64,000 nucleotides of DNA from an uncultured virus (IMG/VR IMGVR_UViG_3300031886_000002) (taxonomy: Duplodnaviria > Heunggongvirae > Uroviricota > Caudoviricetes): the IMG/VR virus record IMGVR_UViG_3300031886_000002; one strand, written 5' to 3'. Below the pieces are notes generated by a model that was not told the origin of the DNA, ran no database searches, and was given only the letters and a program-made list of their open reading frames with translations. This document shows, in pieces, positions 26,404 to 61,723 of this stretch. Position 1 is the first letter of the stretch; each line of letters opens with the position of its first letter. Made by a program: the position numbers and the translations under genes.

Positions 26404-28923
26404 TCATTCCGCAAACGACATACCTAAATTTTTATGCCTATCTTCACTAATATCCCATATACCAGCGTCTTCATTTGTATCTAGCATCTTCTGCTTGTAT
26501 CCTGTCCAAACTAACCATTTGTCCTCACCCTTCACAGGTACGACTCTAAAGTGTAGTCTAGTCTTAAACTTGTTACCATCAATCTTATATTCATGATAAC
26601 CATGCTTTTGAACCCCTAAGATAATCTCACCCTTATCTAAGAGTTTTTCCTTTTGTGTTTTATTAGACACTTGAGCAGGAAATTTACCGGCTTTTCCAAA
26701 TAGATTATAAATATCTTCATTGTCTTCTATATCAATTGTCCAAGCAAATGTTTCATCATTTACTTGTATTATTAAATCTAAATTATCATCTTTTCTAACA
26801 TAAAGTTTGTATCGGCCCTTTTTAGAAAGTTCTGTAGAATCTTTAATTATTGCCTTATCATTATAAGTATAGTTATTGTGATTTACTTGGATAAATTCAT
26901 CAAAGTCATTCATCCAATTTTTCATTTTTGTAACATTTCCATCCCATAATTGGTCAACTAGAATAGGAATTTGTCTTTCAGCATTTTCAAAAATATCTTT
27001 CAAATTTACTCCTTTTCTATTATCATCTTTTTGCTTTAAATAATTATGTAATACCACTCTTGCTTTACCACTTTTTGATTTGTATATCTTTTGTAATTCT
27101 TCTTTCCAAACATCAATATCAATCAATGCATTCTTTTCCATTAAAGAATCTCCATCGAAACCATAAATAGTATATCCATCAGTATCAGTTTTTAATATTA
27201 TTTCAGCCGTACCATGTATTCCATCTGTAATTGTATATTTTAATAAAGCCTCTTCCACTTCATACTTAAGAGTTTTCTTACCATCTTCTGATAACAAAAG
27301 CATAGTAACTAATTTTTCAGGATGTTCCACTTCGGGTATTTCAATTACCTTAGCAGAATATAAACTAAACCCTTTACCTTTTCTTCTAACTTCATCAACC
27401 TTTACTCTAACAATAGAACCTATTTCGACCTTCTGCTTTGTATTCAATGCTTTACCAACCTTCAAATATGTTTTACCATCCAATTCAGTACCTCCATATT
27501 CTCTAGCCTCTTCTCCTGTTAGTGGGCCTATACCTAGAACATATGAATATAAATCAGATTTGGTTTTATTCTTCTCTAAAACTATAACATCTAAATCAAC
27601 GAACTTCTTCCACTTAATCCATTTTGGGTTTTTCTTTGTTCCAACATAATAAGTTGATTCAATGTCTTTTATTACTACTCCTTCTGATGCTGGTAATTCC
27701 ATAATATCTTTAGCATACTTTTCAATCTCTTTGAGTGAATCTGCAATTCTAGTATTCTTCTTTGAAGGGAAACTTAAAAGGTCATCAGACAAGGAGGATA
27801 ACTGATAAAACATAATATTAATTCTATCTCTTAATGTAGAATCTAATAATGATTGTCCATCATGATTCATAATATCAAAGACTCTTGCCTTTAATGTAGC
27901 ATCAGGATATTTATTTTTAAACAAATGTGCAATAGTATCTGCTCTATGCAAAGGGTCTTTATCATCATACAATATTAATTCTCCATCTAAAATCATATCA
28001 CCAAACTTTTTCTGTTTCATTATTTCAGCAATATCCTTACACTTTTCAGTAATATCTTTTTCATTATAAGTATAAATTTTAACTTTATTATCTACCTTAT
28101 GCAATTGTATTCTAATACCATCATATTTTTCTTGAACAACCCATTCACCACTAAAACCTTTTAGTTCTTTAATATCCTTTACTTCAAATATTCTATACAT
28201 TGGCTTATTTGGAATAATAAAATCTATATCCTCTTTCTCCTCTTCACTTTTCTCCTCTTTTTTCAAAACAATTTCTACTAATTTATCCCATTGTTCTTCA
28301 GTATGAGTAGATAAATATACTTTCTCTAGTAGTTTTAATGCTCCCTTAAATTTACCTTTAACTCTACTAGTATCAACATCATCACCATAATGTTCAATAA
28401 TATACAAAGGAATATCAGACACTTGCAAATCTAAACCTTTTGCTCCTTCTGTTATAACATCAGGTTCTAAATCATGTTTTTCCCATGCACTCTCAGGTAT
28501 AGAGTGGGAATGGTTTCTCAAAGCATAATGAACAAATTGAGCAAATAAGGCAGGTTTCCCTTCTAAAGTTTCAATTACCTTCTCACCCATTTGTTTTCCA
28601 AAAGGGTCATTAATTGAATCAGATTCAAAGCGCATAAGTTTTATATCATTATACAATTGTTCTGCTTTACTAGATTCGGGGTTCAATGCTTCTTTACTAA
28701 ATACAACATCTTCATCTAACGCATCCTTAATTTTCTGAGAAAACTCACTAAGTCCATCAAAATCTTCTCTTATCTTCTTTACAGATTTCTCCCATTCTTT
28801 ACCATATTCTTTAGGGTCTTCTTTTGCTGACAGAAATTTAAATCTAACATCTTCATAGAAATCAAGGACTTTCTTAAATAGATAGTCCGTTTTCTTTTCA
28901 AACTCAACTCCTGACAACGGCAT
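26404..28923 (-). CDS. lig: ATP-dependent DNA ligase with extra N- and C-terminal domains
   Basis: Motif I EKYDGIR, LDGEL, FDI, EGVVIK, WIKWK. Confidence 0.9.
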   Translation of the reverse strand: MPLSGVEFEKKTDYLFKKVLDFYEDVRFKFLSAKEDPKEYGKEWEKSVKKIREDFDGLSEFSQKIKDALDEDVVFSKEALNPESSKAEQLYNDIKLMRFESDSINDPFGKQMGEKVIETLEGKPALFAQFVHYALRNHSHSIPESAWEKHDLEPDVITEGAKGLDLQVSDIPLYIIEHYGDDVDTSRVKGKFKGALKLLEKVYLSTHTEEQWDKLVEIVLKKEEKSEEEKEDIDFIIPNKPMYRIFEVKDIKELKGFSGEWVVQEKYDGIRIQLHKVDNKVKIYTYNEKDITEKCKDIAEIMKQKKFGDMILDGELILYDDKDPLHRADTIAHLFKNKYPDATLKARVFDIMNHDGQSLLDSTLRDRINIMFYQLSSLSDDLLSFPSKKNTRIADSLKEIEKYAKDIMELPASEGVVIKDIESTYYVGTKKNPKWIKWKKFVDLDVIVLEKNKTKSDLYSYVLGIGPLTGEEAREYGGTELDGKTYLKVGKALNTKQKVEIGSIVRVKVDEVRRKGKGFSLYSAKVIEIPEVEHPEKLVTMLLLSEDGKKTLKYEVEEALLKYTITDGIHGTAEIILKTDTDGYTIYGFDGDSLMEKNALIDIDVWKEELQKIYKSKSGKARVVLHNYLKQKDDNRKGVNLKDIFENAERQIPILVDQLWDGNVTKMKNWMNDFDEFIQVNHNNYTYNDKAIIKDSTELSKKGRYKLYVRKDDNLDLIIQVNDETFAWTIDIEDNEDIYNLFGKAGKFPAQVSNKTQKEKLLDKGEIILGVQKHGYHEYKIDGNKFKTRLHFRVVPVKGEDKWLVWTGYKQKMLDTNEDAGIWDISEDRHKNLGMSFAE

Positions 28924-40418: not shown

Positions 40419-42478
40419 TCCTCCCTAATTATACCAGCATCAATTAATGGTCCTGAAAGATGATATATCTTAGATTTCTTAGACATTCTCTCAATGTATT
40501 TATTAGGTTCTTCTATAATATCATCTACCTTAGATTTAACTTGTTCTGTAATACTATCCATTACATTACTAAATTGTTCCTCACAAGCATCTATTAATTC
40601 TACTAATATATCATTTTTATTCTCTGCTTCATCTGAAATAGCATCTAAATAGTCATTTTTAAACTCATTCAATTTACCTTCACTATACCAATAATCTAAA
40701 TAAATTAATGCCTGTAGAATGTCTTGTGGAGTAACATGGTGAGGACTATAGGTTTCATCCCAATCCAAATCTGTTCCTGTTTCCTTATGAACTGCCTGAA
40801 TTATTTTTATAGGGTTAGTTTCTCTATCTTCTTCATTGACTTGCTTTTGTGTTTTTGATTTTCTTAATCTTTGAACTCTTTGAATAAATCTACTCAATCT
40901 ACGAGGAGGAACTTGAAGTCTAAGATTAGAATTAAGTTTATATTGTTGTTCAACTTGAACGAACATATCTTGGAACTCATCTGCTGCATTTAATATGTCT
41001 TTTAAGGATTCTATTATTGGGCGTACTCTTCTAGTTGAATATATTTGTCTTAGTCCCTCACGGAATGCTTTCATATTTTCCTCATTAAATGGTTTATATT
41101 CAGAAAGCCCCCATAAGTCTTTGGCCTCTTGTTCACTAAATAACATCAAGGGTCTCTGACTTTTTAGTTTAGATACTAACTCTTCATATTTAGGTTTTAA
41201 TCTAGTAGCCGAAGGACTTCCTTTGTTTAACCATCTTATAAATCTATTGGAATAATGCTTTTCTCTACCCTCTTCTTCTATTAGTGCTCTATTATGATAT
41301 TCTCCACTTAAATCAGAAATATCTTGAAGAGTCAATTCAATATCATCAGGGTCTAATTCTAATTCTTTAGGTAATTCATTGTCAATAAGAACTTGTATTA
41401 CTTTTTCAGGAATAAGTTTTGTTTCTTGTATTGATGCTCCTTCATCCATCATAGATGAAAGATTAAAAGTATGAGTAGATAATAAAACCTTAACTACAGG
41501 CGGCAATACACTTCTACCAATATAAACAGTATTCAATACATCGTTTTTATTCCCCGGAGACTCTTCCGGTAATTCAGGTAGTAATAATTTAGTTGGCCAT
41601 CCTTGTTTGACTGTTAGTTTAAAATAGTCTAGGATATTATCTCGGCTAATTAAATTAGTATAATTTTTATTTTCAAATTCTTGTTCAGTTCTTGCTTGAA
41701 CATTACTATCAATTTGTTTTTCTGGAAATACTTGTAATAAAGGAGAAGACTTAACTTCTGGTTTAGGAACTTTCAAATTAGTAACTAAGACAGATAAGGG
41801 TTCTTCTAACTCTTTCCATTGGTCTAAACTAATCTTTTCAGGGAAAGTTAATATATTATCCTTTAAAGTATAAGTATCTTCTAGACCTTCTAATTCTGTT
41901 TCAAGTTCTTTCTTCCCACCTTTAGGTAGGGTGATTGTGTTATCAGATAAATCATAATACCAAAGTTCAATATTGCCTTCGGTTTTTTCTCTGATTAAAG
42001 GTTCTTTGTCTTCTAGCATTTTTAGTCTTTGTGTTCTAGTGACTCTTCCGGGCCTTTTATCACCAGACCATGTTTTTGGGCCTCCCTTTAGATAATCAAC
42101 TAAGTCTTCTGTATTCCCCTGCTCTAAAGATTCCATCGCCTTATTAAAATTAGCAATTAATGAATCACTTTGAGGTGTTTCCACAACAATTTCACTCAAT
42201 GCTTCTGATAGTTCTTCTAAGCCATTAACTAAGTTCTCTAGATTATTTCCACTAAGACTAAACTGCTCTCCAAGTTCTTCCTCATCTAAACCCTTCAAAT
42301 CATTAACAATATTTACAGTCTGTCTAGTTCTCTTAGCATCATCTTCCATAGCGGCAGATACCATACTTGAAATTCTTTCTACCCCTGTTTCTCCTGTGCT
42401 TAATGCTCCAGCAATAGCAGTCACCCATGCTTGTTTATTTGCAGGAATAGGGTTTCGTTTTAATATTGTTGCCCACAT
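40415..42478 (-). CDS. Hypothetical protein, WxxhhK tag (start reassigned)
   Basis: ATG at 42478 just after the upstream stop gives MWATILK. Confidence 0.7.
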   Translation of the reverse strand: MWATILKRNPIPANKQAWVTAIAGALSTGETGVERISSMVSAAMEDDAKRTRQTVNIVNDLKGLDEEELGEQFSLSGNNLENLVNGLEELSEALSEIVVETPQSDSLIANFNKAMESLEQGNTEDLVDYLKGGPKTWSGDKRPGRVTRTQRLKMLEDKEPLIREKTEGNIELWYYDLSDNTITLPKGGKKELETELEGLEDTYTLKDNILTFPEKISLDQWKELEEPLSVLVTNLKVPKPEVKSSPLLQVFPEKQIDSNVQARTEQEFENKNYTNLISRDNILDYFKLTVKQGWPTKLLLPELPEESPGNKNDVLNTVYIGRSVLPPVVKVLLSTHTFNLSSMMDEGASIQETKLIPEKVIQVLIDNELPKELELDPDDIELTLQDISDLSGEYHNRALIEEEGREKHYSNRFIRWLNKGSPSATRLKPKYEELVSKLKSQRPLMLFSEQEAKDLWGLSEYKPFNEENMKAFREGLRQIYSTRRVRPIIESLKDILNAADEFQDMFVQVEQQYKLNSNLRLQVPPRRLSRFIQRVQRLRKSKTQKQVNEEDRETNPIKIIQAVHKETGTDLDWDETYSPHHVTPQDILQALIYLDYWYSEGKLNEFKNDYLDAISDEAENKNDILVELIDACEEQFSNVMDSITEQVKSKVDDIIEEPNKYIERMSKKSKIYHLSGPLIDAGIIREE

Positions 42479-42479
42479 A

Positions 42480-43277
42480 TTATTCCTCCGGGGTCCAAGT
42501 AAAAGGTTCATTTGGGGAATTAAGTACGGTCTGCTTAAATTTACTCTCAAAGTCTTCCTTAGATATTTGAGGCGCAAACTTTTTTCCTTTAGCAGTAATA
42601 TTTGGATAATTTCTTTGAGCAGCCCAAGCGTGATGAGGAGTAATAGCCATCATTCCCTTTTCATCTAATGATTGAATATGTTCATTTCTATTACTTAATG
42701 GTCCCAACCCAAAAGCCTGATAAACATTTCTTCTATGACTTGTTGGTACTCCACCCTCTCTTGCTGGTTTATGAATAAATAATATTGCTGCTTCTGCATT
42801 AGTTAATAACGCAGGATTTTGTACTGTAGTATAGGTAGATTCTTCTGGCACCATTATATCTATAATTTGTCTATTGCTTCTTGCGCCCCTTGTTTTTGAA
42901 AGGTTTATTACTACTACTCCTACTTCATGTCTATTTAAAGTAAAACTTCTCATGTTACTTATATTAGCCAATGCTTCAGGCACTTCACTAGATGGTATCA
43001 ATGGAGTCCACGATTGCGCACTTCCACTTTCTAAATTAACTATTGTTGCACAACCTCTACCTGTGGCTTTATGTTGCCATGCATTACCCGGCCTAAATAT
43101 CTGTCCTTGTATAGAAGGACTAGGACTTGTAAAGACTCTCACTTGTTTTTCCCAAACATTGCGTTGGTCTAAATACTCAGGTAAATCTCTATCTAACAAA
43201 TCTTGTATGGCTACAGGTTGGTCAGATAATTCATCAAGTGTGGGTCGCTCTGCTTTTATTATCTCAAACCAACTCAT
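42480..43277 (-). CDS. Hypothetical protein, WxxhhK tag
   Basis: MSWFEIIK. Confidence 0.7.
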   Translation of the reverse strand: MSWFEIIKAERPTLDELSDQPVAIQDLLDRDLPEYLDQRNVWEKQVRVFTSPSPSIQGQIFRPGNAWQHKATGRGCATIVNLESGSAQSWTPLIPSSEVPEALANISNMRSFTLNRHEVGVVVINLSKTRGARSNRQIIDIMVPEESTYTTVQNPALLTNAEAAILFIHKPAREGGVPTSHRRNVYQAFGLGPLSNRNEHIQSLDEKGMMAITPHHAWAAQRNYPNITAKGKKFAPQISKEDFESKFKQTVLNSPNEPFTWTPEE

Positions 43278-43690
43278 GTATTATCCCTCCTATGTGTGTG
43301 TCGAGTTTCTTCACATCTATCCCATTGTTCTACTATATGTGCAAGTTCCGGTGAGTCTTCCAAAAACTGTCTAAATTCATCACAGTCTAATTGAGCATTT
43401 GGGGGTAAGGGGCCATCTGTTGTTGTTTGCATATCTCTTAGATATTCAGTTCTTGCCTCTTCACAACATTCTTCAAAATATCTAAGGTCTTCCATACCAA
43501 ATTCAACCCCTTCTTCTGTGCCAAATGCCATACTAGGCTCATCTTCAACCTTAAGCATTTTTTTCCAATCAGGTTCTTCATCATCTGCATAAGGGTCTTC
43601 AGGGTATGGTCTATTAGGGTCTCTTTGTGGGTCTCTTTGTGGGTCGAATGGATGTTGCCCACAATATTTAACCATTTCAAACCAATTCAT
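43274..43690 (-). CDS. Hypothetical protein, two WxxhhK copies plus CC-C-C domain
   Basis: MNWFEMVK, internal WKKMLK, ECCEEAR...LDCDEFR...WDRC. Confidence 0.7.
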   Translation of the reverse strand: MNWFEMVKYCGQHPFDPQRDPQRDPNRPYPEDPYADDEEPDWKKMLKVEDEPSMAFGTEEGVEFGMEDLRYFEECCEEARTEYLRDMQTTTDGPLPPNAQLDCDEFRQFLEDSPELAHIVEQWDRCEETRHTHRRDNT

Positions 43691-43827
43691 TTATACCTCA
43701 CCTTCTTATTTAGATATGCTTTCCTAGACTTACAACCACCACATTCTTTGATTCCTATTTTTTTAGTTGCTCTTGATATGGTATCACCTAAACCTCTATC
43801 CTGTTTAAGTAATTTCTTCCAACTCAT
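43687..43827 (-). CDS. 46-aa protein, WxxhhK tag, CGGC motif (not in ORF track)
   Basis: MSWKKLLKQDRGLGDTISRATKKIGIKECGGCKSRKAYLNKKVRYK; ATGA overlap with next gene. Confidence 0.7.
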   Translation of the reverse strand: MSWKKLLKQDRGLGDTISRATKKIGIKECGGCKSRKAYLNKKVRYK

Positions 43828-43832
43828 GATTA

Positions 43833-44192
43833 TCAATCCATATCATCAGGCACATAGTTTACATCACTCAGGTATTTATGTTTTCTTGTGGTCCAAATTT
43901 CATCCCATTGTTCCTGTATTTCTGCCATGAATCTTGTTTCAACCTCAGTCCTAACAACCCTACCTGCCTCTGTCCATTCTTCACTATCAAAATAATGAGA
44001 AGGGTATCTTCCTTTTAATTTAGGATGCGTTTTTCTATTCCATCCATACCAATGGTCGCCAGCAATTTCACGAATATATTTGTTAGTCAATTTTTTGAAT
44101 TTTCTTGATTTCAAATACTTCACAATATGTTCCTTCAAATCCTTAATGATACCCTTTTCAATATCTTCTTTTATTATCTCTTCCCAACTCAT
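43833..44192 (-). CDS. Hypothetical protein, WxxhhK tag
   Basis: MSWEEIIK. Confidence 0.7.
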   Translation of the reverse strand: MSWEEIIKEDIEKGIIKDLKEHIVKYLKSRKFKKLTNKYIREIAGDHWYGWNRKTHPKLKGRYPSHYFDSEEWTEAGRVVRTEVETRFMAEIQEQWDEIWTTRKHKYLSDVNYVPDDMD

Positions 44193-44509
44193 TGTAAATC
44201 CTCCTCATCAGGTAGTGGATATTTGTCATTTAATTCTTGTCTTACGCGTGTATCTCTCAGTTTACCTCTCGGTAACTCACCATCTATACTCTGTTGTGCC
44301 AAGTCTAGTTTTTTCAAATATTCTAACACAGCAACTGCTCTATTTGTTTGTGCTTCTATGTGTCTTTGTGGTATTGGGTGGGGTGTTCCATCATGGAAAT
44401 TCTCCATATACCCTCTAATTGCCTTTACAATAAATTCTTGATGCTGAATTAACTCGCGTAACTCAGCATTATTTACTGGTCCTTCTTTCATTATTTCTTT
44501 CCAACTCAT
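44189..44509 (-). CDS. Hypothetical protein, WxxhhK tag
   Basis: MSWKEIMK. Confidence 0.7.
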   Translation of the reverse strand: MSWKEIMKEGPVNNAELRELIQHQEFIVKAIRGYMENFHDGTPHPIPQRHIEAQTNRAVAVLEYLKKLDLAQQSIDGELPRGKLRDTRVRQELNDKYPLPDEEDLQ

Positions 44510-45162
44510 TGTAATTTCTCCTCCATTTTTGCCTTAACATCTAACCAAACTTGTGGATGATTCTGTGCTAATACTTCTTGCACTACTTGCATTTGTGCAA
44601 TAATTACAGTATCTTGTCTCTTATGTATGAGTTTACCTTTAAATTCCATCAAATATCTAAGACTTTCCCTAATCTCCTTCGCTAATTTTGTTAAACTATC
44701 AACATACTTAGGATGCATTTCATCCTGCTCAAACAATATGTCAATTTTGTCATCCAATCGTAGGATATTTCTAGATAGAGCCTCAACTTCGTCTATCTGG
44801 CGTTGGGCTATAAGGGTTGCCGCTGATTTTTGCACTAAAGGCTGCAAATGCTTTCTCATGTGCCTTTTTACCTGTTCTTCACTACATTCTAACATTTCTG
44901 CTATTGCCTGAGTAGTGGCATTTCCTTCACTTAACTGCTCTTCCAAATATCCTCTAATTTCATGAGTACACACTTTACATCGCGGATTGGATGAATCAAC
45001 ATAATCTCCCATGTGATTACGCTGGTGTCTAGCAGATGTTCCACTAGGCCAATCCATGTTTTTATCTAACTCATCAGTAGATACCTGTCCTGTTTCCAAT
45101 TGTTCTTCTATTATCTCTCTTTCGTCGTGATTACACAACTTACATCTCTTTCTCTTTACCAT
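44506..45162 (-). CDS. Tandem Zn/HTH-repeat protein with coiled coil; candidate terminase small subunit
   Basis: Two CxxCxH...HxxxH repeats; start reassigned to the TAATG overlap at 45162. Confidence 0.55.
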   Translation of the reverse strand: MVKRKRCKLCNHDEREIIEEQLETGQVSTDELDKNMDWPSGTSARHQRNHMGDYVDSSNPRCKVCTHEIRGYLEEQLSEGNATTQAIAEMLECSEEQVKRHMRKHLQPLVQKSAATLIAQRQIDEVEALSRNILRLDDKIDILFEQDEMHPKYVDSLTKLAKEIRESLRYLMEFKGKLIHKRQDTVIIAQMQVVQEVLAQNHPQVWLDVKAKMEEKLQ

Positions 45163-46631
45163 TAACCTTGTCCTCCTTGATGTGGTCTTTCCCGATTTGT
45201 CCAATGAATATCTATTGTGTCAGGTTGCCAATCATATTCTGATATAACAAAATCAGGATACCAACCTATTAATAATGGCAATGCTGCCTCAACAGACATT
45301 CCTAGTAAATCTGGTGAATTGAATCTAATATATCTATTACCTTGTTTTCTAGACGCATAAATTAATGGGTCTATTCTTTCTTCAAATAAATCTTCTGCTT
45401 CCCAATGGTTAATTCCCTCATGTGGTGCTTTTAATGGGACTCTTTCATGAAGTTCATCTTCAGACATTGGAGCCTTTAATATATCCATCCATCTAATGTT
45501 TCTATTAGGGATGAATGCTTTCTTAGTATCCTTTTCTTTCTTTTTATTATATTCTTCACGAGTTGGTAAATGCACCGCTAACTCTCCAATCTTACCCAAA
45601 CCAAGCATAAATCCAATATTCCTAACTTGTCTACGAGCAATGCGTAATTTGTAAAACTTAACTTCTCCTTTAATTCCCTTCTTTTGACCTAATTGTTTTA
45701 TTAACTCACTTTCTTCAGGCTCAGTAACTTTGAATTCTTTTGTCGATAATACATTAGCAATATGAGTATCTCTCATTGAGCCTGTTTTTGGATTAACTCC
45801 AGTATTATTTGTTCTTTGTCCTTCCGGTTTAGATTTATCATATACATAGTCCTTAAACCATGCCTTAACTTTTGGTATTCCATACACTCTCTTAGCAGTA
45901 CCTAATCCTAGAATTGATAGTTCTACATTATCAATTTCTATGTCATCAAGGGCTTTAATGCCCTGTTCCAATATAGGCTTTAATCCATCATGTTTTAATT
46001 CTATATTTTCTTCTTTTGTCCCAAACAATGCCTGCCAAAGAGGAGGCTTTGCTTCTCCGGGTGATTTATTATACCAATGTCCGGGAACAGGGTCAGTAAA
46101 TTTATCATTAGGTTTACCCCTTTTCTTATTCTTTAGTTTTCTAAATTTAACATAGTCAGAAGTTCTATAATGACCAAACATTTCTACTTTCTTAACCTTC
46201 AATGTTCTTCTTTCTACAGTTTTATAAACAGGCATCATGAAACTAACATTTGCTGGATTGTATTCTTTCTCTATTTTCTCCATGAGTTTCAATGCAGATT
46301 GTAAACTCTTTTCATCATCTTCATCTATCTCATCAGCACTTTTAATAAAGGCTTCTATTGCCTTCATTATTGTTGAACCACCTATTGACTTCTTTGGTGA
46401 TGACCCTTCTAATTTAATTCTACCTTTAACTCCATGTCCTTCTACTAAAGACAATAGAGTAGTTTTACCTTTCTTTGATGCCATCTTTAATTTTTCTTCA
46501 TTAAATTGTTCACAAGCATTTTTCCAATTTGCATATAAAGTTTCAATCCCTTCTTTATTGACTTGTTGTTCACCAGAGAAGAATTTCCCTTTAACTTGAT
46601 AAGTTACTTTCTCTATCTTTTCTTTTGGCAT
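45162..46631 (-). CDS. Hypothetical basic protein with internal WMDILK
   Basis: Long K-rich ORF. Confidence 0.7.
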   Translation of the reverse strand: MPKEKIEKVTYQVKGKFFSGEQQVNKEGIETLYANWKNACEQFNEEKLKMASKKGKTTLLSLVEGHGVKGRIKLEGSSPKKSIGGSTIMKAIEAFIKSADEIDEDDEKSLQSALKLMEKIEKEYNPANVSFMMPVYKTVERRTLKVKKVEMFGHYRTSDYVKFRKLKNKKRGKPNDKFTDPVPGHWYNKSPGEAKPPLWQALFGTKEENIELKHDGLKPILEQGIKALDDIEIDNVELSILGLGTAKRVYGIPKVKAWFKDYVYDKSKPEGQRTNNTGVNPKTGSMRDTHIANVLSTKEFKVTEPEESELIKQLGQKKGIKGEVKFYKLRIARRQVRNIGFMLGLGKIGELAVHLPTREEYNKKKEKDTKKAFIPNRNIRWMDILKAPMSEDELHERVPLKAPHEGINHWEAEDLFEERIDPLIYASRKQGNRYIRFNSPDLLGMSVEAALPLLIGWYPDFVISEYDWQPDTIDIHWTNRERPHQGGQG

Positions 46632-54408: not shown

Positions 54409-55364
54409 TACTCTTCTTCCTTAACATGACCCGCTGTAACCAATGGACCATACAAGATTCTTTGTTGCCTATTTAACCTGTTAAAAAGTTCTTTACTTTC
54501 AAACCTAGCATGGGGATTATGTTGTTTACCACTTAATACTTCTTTGACTTTATTTGACAATCTTTCCTTCATTGGTGCTTTACGGAAATTCAATTTGCTA
54601 AGAAACTCCTTGTGTTGAGACCCATATTTTTCAATTGCGCCATGTAATGTAACTGGGTAATCTGTATACCAAGAATTAAATATATTATCTGTTATTCTTG
54701 CATCCATGCTAATCAACTGTTCTTCTGTTAGGTCTCGATAATAATGCTTTTGTTCTTCTTTACTAGCAATAGTATGAATATCTATCATTTTATCCTTACC
54801 TGCCAGATTATCATGTTCTGTGTCAACAACAATACCCTCTATCCAAAGTATAAAGTTATGTAAACTTTGCTTTTTATATCGGTTTAATCCCGGATAATTT
54901 AACAAACTCTTACTTCTTTCATATTTTGAAGATGTTTCTGCTGTGATTGCTAACCATTCTTTTCCCCATGTTTCTTTAGTGTCTGTTCCAGCCGTTGAAC
55001 GATAATACCATTCATCACCTTGTTTCACCCACCCAGTTTCAGAATATTCTCCTGTTAATGAATGTCCAGCATGAATTGCTTCATGACTCGTTATTTCAGT
55101 TATCATTCTCTGTAGTTCAGACTCACTTGGTTCTTCACCATCATTATCTTTCATTAATACCTGCCGCATTGCACCTAAATAAAGATGTATTTCCCTTGAA
55201 CCTTCTTGTGTAGGGCGATAAGATTGACCTTGTATATCTGGTAAATCTACTTGACGCATAGTTCCCATAATACCACTATCCGTGTCATTGTCCTTAAAAC
55301 CAGTATGGACTTCTACATCTATATTAGATTCTGTCATCTTTAATATGTCAAACCAAAGTGGCAT
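54408..55364 (-). CDS. Putative zincin metallopeptidase, WxxhhK tag
   Basis: MPLWFDILK; helix ending in HEAIH with a downstream E. Confidence 0.6.
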   Translation of the reverse strand: MPLWFDILKMTESNIDVEVHTGFKDNDTDSGIMGTMRQVDLPDIQGQSYRPTQEGSREIHLYLGAMRQVLMKDNDGEEPSESELQRMITEITSHEAIHAGHSLTGEYSETGWVKQGDEWYYRSTAGTDTKETWGKEWLAITAETSSKYERSKSLLNYPGLNRYKKQSLHNFILWIEGIVVDTEHDNLAGKDKMIDIHTIASKEEQKHYYRDLTEEQLISMDARITDNIFNSWYTDYPVTLHGAIEKYGSQHKEFLSKLNFRKAPMKERLSNKVKEVLSGKQHNPHARFESKELFNRLNRQQRILYGPLVTAGHVKEEE

Positions 55365-55704
55365 AATATTTCAGTCCATTAAATCTCAAAATTTGGGCTG
55401 GAATTTATTTGGCACTTGCTTTTATTTATTCTTTTATTGCTCGCCATTCCCAGAATAAGGATAACTATTAGAATTAATCATAGTAAAACAAAAAACTAAT
55501 CATTAAACTAGTGTTTGTATCCTTCTATATTTGTATGCCGCGTTTTTATTTATAGGTTTATTCTCATAATTAACCATAGGCTCTCTTGTGCTATGATACC
55601 CTACACGCGCACAGTATATGATTGTTGATGTACCACGCCTAAGATATTACACCAGTAAAACAAAAAAGAAATCATAGGACAAAGCACAAAAAAAATTCTG
55701 CAAA

Positions 55705-56299
55705 GCATATGGTACGAAGTTATCCTCATAGGGAATTAACGCTCATCATTAATCCGATACTCGCTACGCTCGCTAATGATTTACTATCCATATGGTTGGT
55801 GAGACTTATATCTTCGTCGGGTCGGTTACGAAGATTAGGTCGAACCGTTAAATACCCTATTGTTCAGGTTCTGCAGTCCAACCCCGAGAATTTCACCCTA
55901 CCTTCCTTAAAATCATTCTTATCTCTTTAATCCTCGGATAATTCTAATGCGGCTAAGTGCCGCCGGGATTAAAGAGATAACACACCATAGGTGCAGGAAC
56001 ACCCTAGAACCATATGGTCGTGGCGTGAAATATGGAGACGGCTGTTGCATAGTCTTACGCTCTCTATAAAGAGAATATATTAAAAGTAAGACTTGCAACT
56101 TTAGTTCCATGTTTCTAACACTAGGTGTAAGTTCCTGACCTGATGGGGTTAAAACCATATGGTCGTAGACCGGATGGGACTATATCAGTCGGGGTAAAAT
56201 AGAACATCTTACTGTTATATCCATTTGCTAAGCGCAAACGATGTTCATATTTTACCCTTCCCATAAAGGCTTGGTGCTATATGTCACACATCCATATGG
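55705..56299 (+). ncRNA. Hairpin array 1 delimited by CCATATGG palindromes
   Basis: Motif at 55788, 56010, 56155, 56292 (variant GCATATGG at 55705); long stems between the exact copies. Confidence 0.55.
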
Positions 56300-56331
56300 T
56301 TCTATACTTTGTCATTAGAGCCCCCATGTTA

Positions 56332-56493
56332 TTATAACCTTTCATTATAATAGCCTCTGAAACGATTAGAATCAAAGTTAATATTAGTCCTCCCTAATTT
56401 ACCCAATAATACATTAAACTGCTCATCTGTTAGTTTCATTTCTGCTGCCGTTGCTGCTATCCACATAAAATGCCTCCTCTGAAATAGACTCAT
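56332..56493 (-). CDS. 53-aa hypothetical protein (not in ORF track)
   Basis: MSLFQRRHFMWIAA...; ATGA-coupled. Confidence 0.55.
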   Translation of the reverse strand: MSLFQRRHFMWIAATAAEMKLTDEQFNVLLGKLGRTNINFDSNRFRGYYNERL

Positions 56494-56633
56494 TCATATT
56501 CCTCCGGTGTGTATATCTTACGCTTCACCATATCTCTAACCCAAGCATCTTGATTTCTCAATGGCTCTTGAAAATGTATTATTTCACATATCTGCACAAT
56601 TAGCCTTCTTAACTCTTCCTCACAAGGAGTCAT
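56490..56633 (-). CDS. 47-aa hypothetical protein (not in ORF track)
   Basis: MTPCEEELRRLIVQ...; ATGA-coupled on both sides. Confidence 0.55.
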   Translation of the reverse strand: MTPCEEELRRLIVQICEIIHFQEPLRNQDAWVRDMVKRKIYTPEEYE

Positions 56634-56734
56634 TTCATCACCGGCCACTTATTAAAGAAATGACAGTGCTTGCATACTCTACCCATAACAGTAGATTCAC
56701 CACACGCCCTACAATCTATATTATACTGTTGCAT
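56630..56734 (-). CDS. 34-aa Zn-finger microprotein (not in ORF track)
   Basis: MQQYNIDCRACGESTVMGRVCKHCHFFNKWPVMK; TAATG-coupled. Confidence 0.6.
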   Translation of the reverse strand: MQQYNIDCRACGESTVMGRVCKHCHFFNKWPVMK

Positions 56735-57024
56735 TACTTTCCTCTCCCCGCATTTGGGTCAATATCCTCAACATCAGGCTTCTCATCTGATGGGATTATA
56801 TTATCTGGGTGTTCAGAACATAACTCTATTGTATCCAAATCCCATTCTTCTTGAAAACTGCCTTCGTATTCGTTGTCAATTATATCCTCAAACTCATAGA
56901 TAGCATTAACAAACGCTTGAGCATTCATATTAGTTATTGCATCAAATGCCTCTGCTTCAATCCAAACTGTTCTATGATTCCAAATGTTTTCTGAAACCCA
57001 TACTGAAACAAGATACCTATTCAT
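56734..57024 (-). CDS. Hypothetical acidic protein
   Basis: Coupled ORF. Confidence 0.65.
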   Translation of the reverse strand: MNRYLVSVWVSENIWNHRTVWIEAEAFDAITNMNAQAFVNAIYEFEDIIDNEYEGSFQEEWDLDTIELCSEHPDNIIPSDEKPDVEDIDPNAGRGK

Positions 57025-57742
57025 CTCCCATCACCTTCTCAATTGTTACAGGCTCACACTTTGCAGTAGTTTCACTTCTAATAAAGGATATGCAATCAAC
57101 CATGAAAGTAAGGTCACAATCTACTGTGAATGTCTCCAATACAGATTCAATGATTTTTCTTATTGCTCGCATATCAGATAGAGGGACTTCAACAAGTTTT
57201 TCAGTAGCCGCCTTTCTTTCATCAACAGAATCAGCATTGTAAGTTATAACAAAATCAAGCACCCAAGTATTGCGCTTCTTCTCAAATGAAGTAACCATCT
57301 GAAGGTTATCATCATATCTCAAATTTGGATTACCCTCTTTATTGCTCTCTCCTTCCATATTTACAAATGCCATATGGAAAAATTCACCCGGCACTGACTT
57401 CCATTGTTCTACTTCCGTAACTACCTCTTCTCTCCTGTAATAAGCATCTTGATAGTTAGCATTCTTGAATCCATCAACGGCTATTATTGCTTCACTGTTC
57501 CAAGACAATCTAAAGATTTCCTCAGATTCATTATCAATGTATACCGGATATTGGTAAGTAGAATCTGTTTTAATACCAAACCCATAATTATCAGGGTTTA
57601 TCTTATCTCTCCAATGCCAGCGTGAAACTTGGCTTAGTCCTTCACAATGCAATAGGTATGAAACCTGTCTTGCAATATGTTCTACATCATCCCACTCTTC
57701 GGCTTCGTAGGTTATTGTCATATTTCTCTCAAATACTACCAT
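57017..57742 (-). CDS. Hypothetical protein
   Basis: Coupled ORF. Confidence 0.7.
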   Translation of the reverse strand: MVVFERNMTITYEAEEWDDVEHIARQVSYLLHCEGLSQVSRWHWRDKINPDNYGFGIKTDSTYQYPVYIDNESEEIFRLSWNSEAIIAVDGFKNANYQDAYYRREEVVTEVEQWKSVPGEFFHMAFVNMEGESNKEGNPNLRYDDNLQMVTSFEKKRNTWVLDFVITYNADSVDERKAATEKLVEVPLSDMRAIRKIIESVLETFTVDCDLTFMVDCISFIRSETTAKCEPVTIEKVMGDE

Positions 57743-57943
57743 TCACTCATCTCCCAGATTAGTGACATATTCGTTCAATGCTTCTTTAAGGTCAGTCATT
57801 ACTTCATTAAGGTCGTCACCAGATACCCTCAATTTGTTAATGCACAACACAAGACTGCTTCCAGACTTCATGTGTTTAACCTCAAGCACATATTTAGGCT
57901 CGTTTATTTGTTGTATAATAGTTTTATCATCCATTTTACTCAA
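57743..57943 (-). CDS. Hypothetical protein
   Basis: Adjacent ORF in operon. Confidence 0.6.
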   Translation of the reverse strand: MSKMDDKTIIQQINEPKYVLEVKHMKSGSSLVLCINKLRVSGDDLNEVMTDLKEALNEYVTNLGDE

Positions 57944-58053
57944 TCTTAATGCATTGGCGCTCTTTATGAGGAAGTGCAGTCAAAGCACACTACCATATGG
58001 TTTGGCGCACTTTGAAAGCATTAACCCGAATGGTGAGGGGGGCGCACCCCACA

Positions 58054-58617
58054 TCATTCTTCCTCGTTGCCTCCTACGGGGCCATTATCGAGGACATTCG
58101 GGAACCCATCGTCGGTATAGGTTCCATCCCATGTGTATTGCTTATCCTTATTCTTGGAATGAGCATTATACGCGGCGTTCAAGAATAGGCGTTCTTTGCC
58201 TACTACTGATGCGGCGTATTCTGATGCTCCATCTTCCATATTTCGGTAAAAAGCGCCACCTGACTTTCCGTGTAGTCTGGCTGAGGTTCGCACATAGCCC
58301 GAACCTTCAAAGGCTGCGAGGGCATCTGCTTCATAAGCGAGCAGGTATTCCTCAAACCTTGACTTCGTTTCCGAATCCATTAGTGACCTTCGACCCGAAC
58401 CAACGGGTGAAAGTTTGCCCAAGTGGGCGAACATTGACCCTATTGCGGACCAATGCTTCTTGCGTAATTGTGGCTGACCGTCACCGATGGAGAATATACC
58501 ATCTGTTGTGACCTTAATCCCTATGTGGTCGGGATTTGCTTCATACCACTCATCTATATCGGCCTTTCGGCCATTCCATTTATCATCATCCATACTGTAA
58601 TCTACCATATTTTTCAT
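58054..58617 (-). CDS. Hypothetical protein, paralog A (RxHGKSxG...WDGT family)
   Basis: Shares ordered motifs with 59356..59898. Confidence 0.75.
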   Translation of the reverse strand: MKNMVDYSMDDDKWNGRKADIDEWYEANPDHIGIKVTTDGIFSIGDGQPQLRKKHWSAIGSMFAHLGKLSPVGSGRRSLMDSETKSRFEEYLLAYEADALAAFEGSGYVRTSARLHGKSGGAFYRNMEDGASEYAASVVGKERLFLNAAYNAHSKNKDKQYTWDGTYTDDGFPNVLDNGPVGGNEEE

Positions 58618-58710
58618 GTCTCCTGTTTTTCCCCATGTTGTAGGTTTGCGCCCCCACTCATAAGTAATACTAACATTACTCTACTTAAGGTGATTTTACA
58701 AAGTGCAATA

Positions 58711-59277
58711 CCATATGGTCATGTTAATTAATTGACCCGATGGGCTAGCCTTATAAAAGAAAATTGGCATTGGATTGCTTTAGCAATCTTATGTGTGATA
58801 TGTATGCTTGAATTAGCGATAAACGGTCCACCACCATGTGAGATGGACAACGGAGGAATACATCCCTCCTGTCTACTACCAATGGAGTGAACCTATCACT
58901 AATCAAGCACATAATCACCGATTGCCTTCGCTGCCCAATCAGCCAATTTTCTGCTACCATATGGTAAGTATTGGGTGCTCTGCGCGTTATAGGCGAGTAA
59001 GATTGCTGCGAGGTGAACACTTAGTTCACCAAGATAGGCTACTGCAGCAACCTTAGGCGTCTATAAAACCAGTAGAGGTGTGGCGTGACTATGGTTCAGT
59101 GTGGTCACTTACCGGATTGGGGCGTATTCACTACCATATGGTATTAGGTTTTATTTTAACTCATGTTAAAAGGCGTGTAACTTGGTTGTTCTCTGTGTAG
59201 CCTCGCACCAATGGAAAAACGAGCGTTTTTCCTATCACCACTCAATCTACCACAGAAAAACTGCTAAAACCATATGG
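58711..59277 (+). ncRNA. Hairpin array 2 delimited by ACCATATGGT palindromes
   Basis: CCATATGG at 58711, 58957, 59134, 59270; stems in every interval. Confidence 0.6.
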
Positions 59278-59292
59278 TTGTGCTTTGCCTGC

Positions 59293-59306
59293 AACCCCTT
59301 ATAAGG
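59293..59306 (+). promoter_or_regulatory. TATA-like promoter (CCCTTATAAGG)
   Basis: Upstream of 59356; related CCCTTATAGGG at ~61765 upstream of 61805. Confidence 0.45.
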
Positions 59307-59355
59307 AATCGGCGGATAAGACTATTGCCCAAAACGGCGAACAACTAAATGGAAA

Positions 59356-59898
59356 GTGAAAAAAATGGAAGATATTAAGTGGGAATCTGTAAAGATTAAA
59401 GTTAATGGAATGTTTGAGGGAGATGCCGAGTTTGGCAATATCCCTGATGATGTAATCGGAATAGCACAAATGATGCTATCTTCCGGTGATGGAAATGATG
59501 AGACAAGAGATAGTATAACTGCATCTCTAAAGGCAATGTTGAAGGATTACGAAGGTTATCCGTGGAAGAAAGGCAATCAAGGTATTTTGCCTGTTGCTGC
59601 AAAGATAGTAGTTGACAATGCTTGTCAAGAGATTAGGGAGGCTGCAGTAGTCTTCTTTAATTCAACACAACAATATTCGCGCCCTTTGCTGCGAAAGCAT
59701 GGTAAGAGTAGTGGAAGCCCCGTCTATGACGATGCTGAAGATTACGCTAACACGCTTGCAGAAAAGGCACGAAAGACTGCAACAAAACTGTTTAAGAAGG
59801 ATGAAGATGGAAATCAAATCTGGGACGGGACAGTTTCAGGTTTAGAGGCTGCTTGTGCTTGGGAAGAGCCAGCAGACGAAGAAACGGAGAGTGAGTGA
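59356..59898 (+). CDS. Hypothetical protein, paralog B (RxHGKSxG...WDGT family)
   Basis: Shares ordered motifs with 58054..58617. Confidence 0.75.
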   Translation: MKKMEDIKWESVKIKVNGMFEGDAEFGNIPDDVIGIAQMMLSSGDGNDETRDSITASLKAMLKDYEGYPWKKGNQGILPVAAKIVVDNACQEIREAAVVFFNSTQQYSRPLLRKHGKSSGSPVYDDAEDYANTLAEKARKTATKLFKKDEDGNQIWDGTVSGLEAACAWEEPADEETESE

Positions 59899-60409
59899 TT
59901 AACTCACTTTAGTGGCCGGGTTGTGGCAGTTAGTGAGTGCATAGAGCCTTATCTTTTTGAAAGGTAAGGTTCTATGCCTCCAAATTGAGGTTCGATATGA
60001 CAAAGTATATTCAACCATATGGTTGTAATTGAGTCATAATGAGAGGCTGGAGGCGGTGGGCCTCGGCTTTATAAGGAGTACGACTCTCATAGAATCCGTG
60101 AATGAGTTATTCAGGGAATTGACTCACAAAGAGCAACTTCCACCTAAGCACTACATAATGAATGAACTACAATTGTCTTAATTTATTCCGGTGTGAAAAC
60201 TCTACCAAATTTAATATGTGCAATGAGTCCTATATTTATGTATCTCATACGATATATGTCATACACATATCCTTATGGCTTATCCTATATGATATGATAA
60301 GGGCGTAATAAAAGGAATCAATATGACACAGTTTCCAATGTTCTCATTTAGATAAGAACCTAAAGTGTATCAAAATGAAGCACTTCAGAAGGAGAAGTGA
60401 AGTATTATG

Positions 60410-60475
60410 AATATATTCTTATATTCTTATTATTATATTATATTATACACACCTACCTACCTACCTACCTACCCC
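60410..60475. repeat. AT-rich low-complexity tract plus (ACCT)x5 microsatellite
   Basis: atattcttatattcttattattatattatattata followed by acctacctacctacctacctacc. Confidence 0.75.
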
Positions 60476-60640
60476 TCAAGTCCCGCTAGAATATCGAGAA
60501 TCCGAGAATCGGAGTCGAACTGTATCATTATGAATGCTTTTAAGCGATTAACTGTATCATTCTGATATTCCACCGGGGTAGAATCAGGTGATAACATTCA
60601 CAGAATATTCCTAAATACAATTATTTAGGAGGTAACAAAC

Positions 60641-61225
60641 ATGAAATGGACAAAGAAAGATATAACACGACTAACAAAGTTGTGGAAGAAAGGAGATAAA
60701 CTAAAGATGATAGCAGTAAAGATGGGGAGAACGACACCATCAATAGTGTCTAAAGTAGCAGACCTACAAAGGAAGGGAGAACTTCCATATAGACACAAAG
60801 ATGGTGGAAAAGGTAAAGCAGACGATACAGGGACAGTTATCTTGAAAAGAACACATCTTTTGGGACAAAAGATGAACCCAGACCAAAGGAAATGGGTGAA
60901 TAACCCAGCAAAAGATTGGGATAAACTCAGTGAATACGTTGAGAAACAACGCCCCACACTAGGACACACAACCATTAGAATCATGGATGTGTGTGATGAA
61001 ATCAAAGCCTTCCTAGTTGCTAAGAATCAAGCATATGGAGATTCAGCATTACAACCAATAAGGATATTCTCAAAGTCTGATGCTTCAGAACAACTGAAGG
61101 TTAGAATTGATGATAAGTTGAATAGACTCATGCAAGGAAATGATTCAATAGAAGCAGATGAAGATGTAGTAAAAGACCTAATAGGTTATCTTGTACTTCT
61201 TCTGATTCAGATGAAGGAAGAATAG
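60641..61225 (+). CDS. N-terminal HTH fused to a nucleotide-modification-associated (DUF1599/Nmad1-like) domain
   Basis: MKWT...IAVKMGRT HTH; KNQAYGDS...RIDDKLNRL...DLIGYLVL. Confidence 0.7.
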   Translation: MKWTKKDITRLTKLWKKGDKLKMIAVKMGRTTPSIVSKVADLQRKGELPYRHKDGGKGKADDTGTVILKRTHLLGQKMNPDQRKWVNNPAKDWDKLSEYVEKQRPTLGHTTIRIMDVCDEIKAFLVAKNQAYGDSALQPIRIFSKSDASEQLKVRIDDKLNRLMQGNDSIEADEDVVKDLIGYLVLLLIQMKEE

Positions 61226-61645: not shown

Positions 61646-61723
61646 GCTCCATTGGTGTAGTCTGGCCCATCATACAGGGTTTTCGACTCTGTGACACGGA
61701 TTCAAATTCCGTATGGAGCACCA
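61646..61723 (+). tRNA. trnE: tRNA-Glu (TTC) with encoded CCA
   Basis: Acceptor gctccat/atggagc, anticodon arm caggg-ttTTCga-ctctg, T arm acgga-ttcaaat-tccgt, 3' ACCA. Confidence 0.92.

Follow-up and report, generated by a model that had tools for sequence, protein, structure and literature searches.

We analyzed a 64,000-nucleotide stretch of DNA (the window) from an uncultured virus, IMG/VR record IMGVR_UViG_3300031886_000002, in which copies of a short palindrome, CCATATGG, are confined to a single region. We consider it probable that this region is an accessory array of self-contained units that are joined and recombined at a symmetric joint, (A)CCATATGG(T). The joint is a perfect 10-bp palindrome. 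Since it is its own reverse complement, an exchange between copies can flip or excise a segment. Any two copies of such a self-complementary site could pair in either orientation, and exchange or template switching between them would leave the intervening segment flipped, or excised and reinserted at another copy. The array, which we interpret as a hyperplastic accessory region, lies at the switch between two large divergent gene modules.

The window contains 11 exact copies of CCATATGG, and the whole set lies inside 55788-60022 (4.3 kb). Dinucleotide shuffles of the window contain a mean of 1.22 copies and a maximum of 5, and none of 100 shuffles reached 11. This comparison was named as a check in a preliminary description of the stretch. 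The ten exact copies listed there are all at the coordinates given, their spacings are as described, and our recount agrees that the rest of the window is free of copies. The accompanying statement that every copy is intergenic and followed by T holds for those ten, but not for an overlooked copy at 57370..57377, which lies inside a 241-aa open reading frame (ORF; 57017-57742, minus strand) in the context g...a instead of a...t. Because about one chance copy is expected, we take the 57370 copy to be a chance occurrence that is probably not a joint. Units in related viruses that are homologous to the unit around it (~1600 nt, cluster C12) have no internal CCATATGG.

The bases next to the motif are also constrained. 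T follows the exact motif in 10 of the 11 window copies, and A precedes it in 8. Across 260 distinct sites from the window and its relatives, the consensus is [A/T]A-CCATATGG-T[A/T], with A and T each present in 86%. Copies with one mismatch are not enriched as a class in the window (32 matches, exact copies included, vs 25.9 expected). Of the 21 one-mismatch copies, we counted GCATATGG at 55705 only because it is placed at the array edge and has T after it. Literature searches with the motif string returned primers only.

Arrays of this type are found in related viruses. Scanning IMG/VR for two motif copies 120-150 nt apart identified 41 loci on 31 contigs, and 22 of these contigs carry 5-23 copies in the fetched stretch. 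The remaining nine carry just 2-4 copies, and one of them is a giant-virus metagenome-assembled genome. These nine contigs look unrelated to the array system, as does locus L016 (2984-3147 on contig 3300042888_003194), where seven ACCATATGGTT copies stand in tight tandem with 18- and 42-nt spacing. The array region holds 21 of 22 motif copies in relative G002 (40608-45239), 16 of 17 in G003 (86157-90723), 13 of 14 in G004 (80162-84092), 12 of 12 in G005 (68727-72332) and 9 of 9 in G006 (62665-66611). A reversed control pattern gave 0 matches in these five genomes. The array in relatives is always positioned at the switch between two divergent gene modules, and the linkage of motif, ORF-less units and paralogous genes proposed from the window is present there as well. 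There are zero copies of CCATATGG in the window outside 55788-60022 and 3 outside the arrays in the ~437 kb of G002-G006, where roughly 8-9 would be expected by extrapolating the window shuffle rate. This is a weak hint that the motif is avoided outside arrays.

The order and orientation of units differ among relatives. We mapped 32 arrays and obtained 349 units, which form 65 clusters with at least two members and 189 singletons. Close relatives carry identical unit clusters in changed order and orientation. For example, the units of 3300037963_004722 and 3300030012_002105 are 90-96% identical, and clusters C26 and C10-C11 have moved while C29, C9 and C31 have flipped. Scrambling was likewise found between 3300032073_000069 and 3300006921_000010, between 3300028829_004116 and 3300006752_000216, and between 3300030329_003230 and 3300030060_006606. 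We located break points by extending 145 homologous unit pairs by 200 nt per side, which gave 290 ends. Homology stopped 0-9 nt outside the palindrome at 91 ends (61 of these at 0-2 nt) and between -60 and 0 at 7. At 79 ends it ran at least 150 nt beyond the unit into the same neighbor (synteny), and at 77 ends, from diverged pairs, it stopped more than 60 nt inside the unit. This distribution places the joints at the palindrome within a few bases. Because the palindrome bounds coding units and unit order and orientation differ there, we interpret it as a joint at the DNA level.

Several observations weigh against recombination at this joint. The shuffling was seen among relatives and not in this genome, because the ORF-less units of the window have no homolog in the related loci; a blastn search with the seven window intervals that lack a long ORF found nothing at E <= 0.01 in 62 loci. 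There is no tyrosine recombinase, serine recombinase or Y1 transposase in the five near-complete array-bearing relatives (86-96 kb, CheckV 92-100%), and no nuclease is tied to the site. Phage_integrase (PF00589) was absent from all five, with 14/14 positive controls, and Resolvase (PF00239) and Y1_Tnp (PF01797) were absent from the same five, with positive control genomes. Pfam searches of 66 of the 101 G003 ORFs and a scan of 33 window ORFs also found no recombinase. A site of ten base pairs offers little length for exchange driven by homology. Some of the break points at unit borders could be due to selection, if only rearrangements with intact units survive, and the units in the break-point test were defined by the motif itself. 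Finally, the promoter and terminator roles of the cassette modules described below are putative and rest on patterns and a regular expression.

A speculative and less likely model of how units are exchanged treats the palindrome and its flanking hairpins (GGTnnn-CAAAG loop-nnnACC ATAT GGTnnn-CTTTG loop-nnnACC) as a previously undescribed cut-and-rejoin site of archaeal viruses. A nuclease would open the symmetric core and leave self-complementary ends, and a viral ATP-dependent ligase or the replisome would rejoin any of these ends in either orientation. No integrase would then be needed for cassettes and RNA genes to be permuted, flipped, lost or captured. Under this model, the site would be scarce outside the array because stray cuts are selected against.

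The anatomy of the coding units was derived from 44 cassettes that contain one ORF of at least 120 aa and share a common order of parts. The 5' end starts with CCATATGGT and a hairpin that has CTTTG in its loop and a stem running from the palindrome's GGT to a closing ACC. A TATA-like box (ACCTTATAAGG, ACCCTATAA, ACCTTAAATA) directly follows the hairpin. About 22 nt past this box is a CTAyTATTG-like element, and the leader contains a GGAG/GGTGA-like element before the ATG. At the 3' end, the sequence after the stop codon can pair with the leader; a T run or a hairpin of the CCC-UUCG-GGG type often comes next, and a CAAAG hairpin and the next palindrome complete the unit. Each coding unit would be an autonomous expression cassette. 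Its predicted order is half-palindrome, GGTnnn/CTTTG-loop/nnnACC hairpin, TATA-like box, leader and ORF, and then leader-pairing trailer, GC hairpin, CAAAG hairpin and half-palindrome.

We compared these elements between coding and ORF-less units. Among non-redundant units, CTTTG stands near the joint on 20/27 upstream and 21/27 downstream coding flanks, and on 8/270 ORF-less flanks. The module of ACC plus TATA-like box is present on 19/27 upstream and 3/27 downstream coding flanks, in 7/135 ORF-less units and in 4/189 shuffles, and the box lies 20-30 nt inside the upstream joint of the coding unit. Of 490 distinct flanks overall, 110 have CTTTG at a distance of 4-10 nt from the motif. When this distance from the motif is divided into 10-nt bins, the first bin holds 106 occurrences and the later bins hold 3-9 each. 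The loop of the joint hairpin is kept while its stems vary in sequence and length, which argues for actual folding of the hairpin, either in RNA or in single-stranded DNA. The window shows the CTTTG hairpin on all six coding flanks (right of 56292, both sides of 57993, left of 58711, right of 59270 and left of 60015) and on none of the flanks that face ORF-less units.

Alternatively, as the preliminary description also suggested, the palindrome could primarily serve as an operator through which a dimeric DNA-binding protein co-regulates the adjoining cassette promoters. Shuffling would then be a by-product of the many identical sites, as in the promoter-early stem-loop cassettes of T4-type phages. 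A perfect 10-bp palindrome with an A/T-flanked consensus, 20-30 nt from these boxes, would suit such a protein, and a candidate DNA or site binder is encoded nearby. ORF 60641..61225 (plus strand) codes for a basic helix-turn-helix (HTH) protein of 194 aa with a pI of 9.55. Its matches to HTH-type PHROGs were the only ones that Pfam and PHROGs searches of 13 local ORFs produced. A homolog adjoins the array in 15 relatives, ~600 nt outside its edge, and some of the 2129 homologs carry a GcrA domain (PF07750). Most palindrome copies, however, have no adjoining promoter-like module, as the counts for ORF-less units and downstream flanks show, and an operator role predicts no break points at nucleotide level. 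We regard the operator role as doubtful, though it is compatible with a recombining joint.

The leader of a coding unit pairs with its own trailer, which places each ORF in the loop of a long stem. Cognate leader-trailer duplexes have a mean energy of -26.5 kcal/mol, vs -17.2 kcal/mol in 306 non-cognate combinations (Mann-Whitney p 2e-5), and the cognate trailer ranked first in 9/18 cassettes. In the window, the duplex of unit A (arms 58661-58638 and 58053-58033) has a predicted energy of -35.7 kcal/mol, and that of unit B (59304-59360 with 59903-59974) -35.6 kcal/mol; these units hold the two paralogous genes described below. The stem could have a role in mRNA stability or processing, or could act as an inverted repeat at the DNA level. 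This layout, with the ORF in a stem-loop, resembles the long stems of the ORF-less units.

Contigs from RNA libraries cover both of these cassettes. The data are Logan contigs, in which cover is visible and level, strand and ends are not. Unit A is covered at 58057/58058-58648 in three studies, and unit B at 59335-59921 or 59335-60001 in two. Both sets stay within their units and start 7-12 nt past the position expected for a transcript start 25 nt from the TATA-like box. Among the listed contigs, only a thin one (X15, 59745-60150) extends across the joint at 60015. These contigs fit autonomous cassettes and provide weak evidence for them. Contig depths of ~118-400 on unit A, 45-116 on unit B and 2-11 on neighbors are unfit for ranking expression. 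Some contig ends recur: 58648 (X17, X18), 58057/58058 (X20, X18) and 59335 (X18, X20). The X18 contig has sequencing-adapter letters directly at 58058 and 58648. The recurrent ends coincide with the inner borders of the stem formed by leader and trailer, with 58058 only 2 nt ahead of the stop codon. They hint, weakly at best, at discrete RNA ends or at reverse-transcription stops at the stem. X17, X18 and X20 have no contigs on the ORF-less stretches 55843-56204 and 58739-59281, and an X15 contig thinly touches 58920-59281; the uncovered part is uninformative, and libraries of this kind catch small structured RNAs poorly.

The ORF-less units form a second class, with bare palindromes as borders. 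They are 80-250 nt long and highly diverse, as 156 short units fall into 122 clusters. We considered the idea that they are gene cassettes that have lost their ORF and disfavor it, since only 5/197 short units resemble part of a long unit. In the window, six ORF-less intervals with spacings of 222, 145, 137, 246, 177 and 136 nt fold better than shuffles on both strands with the motif included (z -3.8 to -7.7), in agreement with the earlier report of structured intervals of 136-246 nt. With the motif trimmed, the better strand of these six gives z -2.9 to -10.9, a rough estimate from 15 shuffles each. The 83-nt interval 55705-55788 folds no better than shuffles (z -0.3/-0.6). The mean fold energy of ORF-less units is -38.3 kcal/mol, vs -28.8 kcal/mol for length-matched genic segments. 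After trimming of the motif, the 151 ORF-less units of relatives have a median z of -1.6, and 42% have z < -2. Structure is therefore not universal in this class.

Many predicted pairs persist through sequence changes in relatives. Within 33 varying clusters of homologous intervals, 59 predicted pairs changed on both sides yet stayed paired, vs 5 in a control slid by two columns, a contrast that is overstated because RNAalifold favors double-change pairs. One hairpin, NNN-GCATTAAGC-N'N'N' with a covarying stem, recurs in 22 unit clusters and is often followed by a CUAAG-like element; contigs 3300030450_002194, 3300032073_000069, 3300006921_000010 and 3300030060_003575 are examples. A second composite motif, ACGCTWAGT..AACGAAGTG, recurs in another array group. 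The window shows no enrichment of GCATTAAGC (12 matches vs 13.1 expected); in it, TAAG-type loops were seen by eye atop three stems (near 55950-55965, 56225-56240 and 59021-59033). Global self-complement alignment of units gave the same paired fraction as shuffles. The asymmetry of G-U vs A-C between strands had a dispersion of 1.74, vs 1.68 in genic controls, and allows no strand call.

One known RNA was identified among the ORF-less units of relatives. In all six arrays searched, one unit is occupied by manA RNA (RF01745), with E values from 1e-13 to 1e-6. The match in L030 (1871-2151) scores 62.5 bits and exceeds the gathering score of 55.2. The other five, in L044 (5563-5786), L045 (4992-5219), L048 (5577-5805), L043 (5677-5910) and L042 (3346-3576), fall below it, with scores of 54.3, 50.2, 44.0, 41.9 and 39.2 bits in descending order. 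manA is reported almost only from marine metagenomes and cyanophages in a passage of Weinberg et al. (2010, PMC2864571). We found no manA match in the window at 55300-60700 with E up to 5. A search of this region with all of Rfam at the same limit gave nothing credible, and the six structured units match no family. Over the whole window, tRNA alone passed the gathering threshold. Stable folding, retained pairs, recurrent small motifs and manA suggest that the ORF-less units are not junk, and we lean slightly toward viewing them as small structured RNAs, which would imply that they are transcribed.

The preliminary description interpreted the array as a set of structured RNAs processed or bound at the palindrome. 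Arrays would be transcribed as long RNAs, and the palindrome, paired with itself or with a neighboring copy, would be cut or bound by a protein so that the individual hairpin RNAs are freed. The structure of the ORF-less units, the pairs kept through double changes, the presence of manA and the built-in ability of neighboring copies to pair all fit this idea. The palindrome also bounds coding units on both strands, however, and TATA-like boxes lie within the units, preferentially inside the upstream joint. RNA-library contigs start and stop within units, apart from the one contig that crosses a palindrome. The boxes and the contig ends together place the palindrome outside the 5' end of coding-unit transcripts. 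Units also face both ways, with the GCATTAAGC hairpin on both strands of one array, so no single precursor carries all of them in sense. The paralogous proteins, moreover, are acidic. RNA processing at the palindrome is therefore unlikely. Other parts of the earlier interpretation have stood: the array is delimited by repeats, differs from CRISPR (clustered regularly interspaced short palindromic repeats) and is kept in relatives together with the paralog family.

The left part of the array in the window contains three structured ORF-less units and one coding unit. The degenerate terminal copy, GCATATGG(T) with one mismatch, is at 55705..55712. The joint reads tCCATATGGt at 55788..55795 and 56292..56299, and aCCATATGGt at 56010..56017 and 56155..56162 and at the six joints farther right (57993..58000, 58711..58718, 58957..58964, 59134..59141, 59270..59277 and 60015..60022, the right array end). 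Unit 55796..56009 (222-nt spacing) has the apex GCGGC-TAAGT-GCCGC and folds with z -4.8/-5.0 with the motif and -3.8/-6.5 when trimmed. The corresponding values are -6.7/-6.3 and -5.0/-2.0 for 56018..56154 (145-nt spacing), and -3.8/-4.3 and -2.7/-2.9 for 56163..56291 (137-nt spacing). Next is a multi-ORF coding unit on the minus strand (56300..57992), with ORFs 57943-57743, 57742-57017, 57024-56734, 56648-56490 and 56493-56332. CTTTG hairpins stand at both of its ends (56307-56311 on the plus strand and 57985-57981 on the minus strand), and a TATA-like CTCATAAAGAG is at 57970-57960 on the minus strand. Three of its ORFs have homologs inside the arrays of relatives.

The right part of the array contains the paralog cassettes. 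The cassette of paralog A (58001..58710, minus strand) encodes 187 aa in ORF 58617-58054. Upstream of this ORF are the CTTTG hairpin (58712-58689), a TATA-like TTAAGTAG (58688-58681) and the leader arm; downstream are the trailer arm and the CAAAG hairpin, which reads CTTTG on the plus strand at 58010-58014. Three ORF-less units follow. Unit 58719..58956 (246-nt spacing; z -7.7/-7.5, trimmed -7.4/-10.9) contains a GGTCA..TGACC hairpin and then CTTATAAAAG near 58750. The plus strand of 58965..59133 (177-nt spacing) folds 17 kcal/mol better than the minus strand, and unit 59142..59269 (136-nt spacing) gives z -3.9/-4.7, or -2.1/-3.6 when trimmed. The cassette of paralog B (59278..60014, plus strand) begins with a hairpin at 59276-59296 (CTTTG loop 59283-59287) and a TATA-like CTTATAAGG at 59298-59306, and continues with ORF 59356/59365-59898, the trailer and CAAAG at 60001-60005. 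The GC content is 0.47-0.50 in the unit of paralog A, 0.38-0.49 in the ORF-less units and 0.35 in the window. Shortly beyond the right end of the array is a tRNA-Glu(UUC) gene (61646-61723). A tRNA match in relative L041 is 174 nt long (5609-5782), which suggests that this tRNA gene has an intron.

Conserved non-coding DNA flanks the array on both sides. The left flank (55365..55704) matches several relatives over ~340-360 nt with 59-64% identity in blastn, and the right flank (60023..60640) matches many over ~200-450 nt with 61-66% identity. The right flank is AT-rich and contains TACC repeats and three AACTGTATCATT-like repeats. The cumulative GC skew has its minimum at ~58600-58900, and the array sits where the two divergent gene modules meet. 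The conserved flanks and the skew minimum may mark an origin or control region. That the palindrome copies themselves are iteron- or parS-like sites for replication origin, partition or packaging at this strand switch is very unlikely despite the skew minimum, the module switch and the adjoining AT-rich, repeat-bearing DNA, since copy number ranges from 9 to 22 among close relatives, spacing is irregular (80-1700 nt), the copies are separated by entire genes and by units unrelated to each other, and skew tracks gene orientation and so is not independent evidence.

We examined the divergent paralogs (58054-58617 on the minus strand and 59356-59898 on the plus strand) by sequence and structure searches. 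They share 25% identity over 165 aa (BLASTP E 2e-8), in support of the paralogy first proposed, and each lies between two palindrome copies (57993..58711 and 59270..60015). Both proteins are acidic (pI 5.15 for A and 4.52 for B), and an HGKSGG loop and an EEE tail are conserved. The family had no sequence-profile match in the Protein Data Bank (PDB) and no Atlas match. An AlphaFold2 model (mean predicted local distance difference test score 88.9) had no Foldseek match in the PDB at E <= 0.001, and the best hit of a wide structure search (VIA), with Z 6.0 over 59 residues of the helical N-terminus, is within noise for helical models. Searching 1.84 billion representatives with a profile of the family yielded 177 clusters; among the 150 listed, 28 were searched with Pfam, which identified one HEAT-repeat fusion and nothing else. 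A search for related loci with paralog A as the sole query found none. The paralogs are array cassettes, and we see no further ground for linking them to the motif.

The window most likely derives from a magrovirus-like tailed virus of marine archaea, an identity that comes from gene content and not from alignment to a named magrovirus genome. Magroviruses infect marine group II archaea (Poseidoniales) and have genomes of about 65-100 kb. A structural module on its minus strand contains genes for terminase, portal, protease, major capsid and tail tube proteins. Between the capsid/protease genes and the portal gene, ORF 26404-28923 codes for an ATP-dependent DNA ligase (PF01068). A ligase inside the structural module is presented as a notable magrovirus feature in a passage of Philosof 2017 (PMC5434244). 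We read archaeal-type replisome genes in array-sharing relatives, as the replication module of the window falls outside the 64 kb. PolB is present in all five near-complete relatives and is split in 2/5. Relative G003 also encodes RFC, an archaeal-type three-domain ligase, an ERCC4/XPF-HhH nuclease and a TFIIB zinc ribbon protein. All or part of the stretch was found in 20 runs from 14 studies, most of them labelled marine or seawater metagenomes. A tblastn search with the terminase against GenBank phages gave distant matches only (21-27% identity), and G001, the nearest of the records compared, spans just 18 kb and lacks the motif. A 2462-aa ORF (2563-9951, minus strand) adjoins the tail genes and matched neither Pfam nor PHROGs; two ORFs of ~2260 aa are present in G003.

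These findings bear on how archaeal viruses vary their gene content. Published abstracts place magroviruses among the abundant surface-ocean viruses, and the function of their small accessory genes is almost wholly unknown. If our interpretation is correct, the symmetric joint would explain how magroviruses reorder, flip and exchange this accessory repertoire, and it points to a recombination route of archaeal viruses without a recognizable integrase. The palindrome also offers a simple sequence handle for finding the repertoire in metagenomes. The leader/trailer stem and the diverse structured units, including manA, provide leads on the RNA biology of archaeal viruses. Neither our literature searches nor the main texts of the magrovirus papers searched yielded a printed description of a palindrome-joined system.

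We compared the array to known systems built on repeats or mobile cassettes. CRISPR arrays have direct repeats of ~23-50 nt and spacers of uniform length. Here the repeat is a 10-bp palindrome and the intervals range from 83 to 1701 nt and include whole genes, which excludes a CRISPR array on architecture; cas genes were not searched for. Hairpin-guided transposition of the IS200/IS605 type does not apply, as Y1 transposase is missing from all five near-complete relatives. Shufflons and other multiple-inversion systems, such as R64 with Rci and sfx or the Int1 region of the haloarchaeal virus phiCh1, invert alternative 3' gene ends. They share with the array a cluster of short repeats and several segments that invert independently. 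In our arrays, by contrast, order and content change too, the segments are whole expression units, and neither tyrosine nor serine recombinase domains occur in the five relatives. Integrons use the tyrosine recombinase IntI and the sites attC and attI, and their promoterless cassettes each end in an attC of 60-140 nt. Exchangeable single-gene units, a structured recombination site and content that varies among relatives are common to both systems. Unlike integrons, the arrays have no tyrosine recombinase in the five relatives and no attC, their cassettes have their own promoter-like box and hairpins at both ends, and a symmetric 10-mer is common to both neighbors of units that occur in both orientations. 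Integron membership can therefore be rejected. The arrays are linked to manA by the structured RNA that fills an ORF-less unit in relatives, although the window has none.

The closest known system is the promoter-early stem-loop (PeSL) cassettes, which are described as mobile regulatory cassettes in hyperplastic regions of T4-type phages in a passage of Arbiol et al. (2010, PMC2839356). In both systems a short repeated element of promoter and stem-loop flanks small non-essential genes in a hyperplastic region, although the promoter is putative in our case and predicted from sequence. In both, exchange between copies would shuffle modules among related viruses, as our array maps and the 91/290 ends at the palindrome suggest. 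The systems differ in their host and promoters. PeSLs carry sigma-70 promoters, whereas the array belongs to an archaeal virus and has TATA-like boxes; sigma-70-like sites are not enriched (18 vs 18.3 expected). They differ further in that the invariant core of the arrays is a perfect palindrome of 10 bp between two CTTTG-loop hairpins, that entire units are flipped, and that many units have no ORF.

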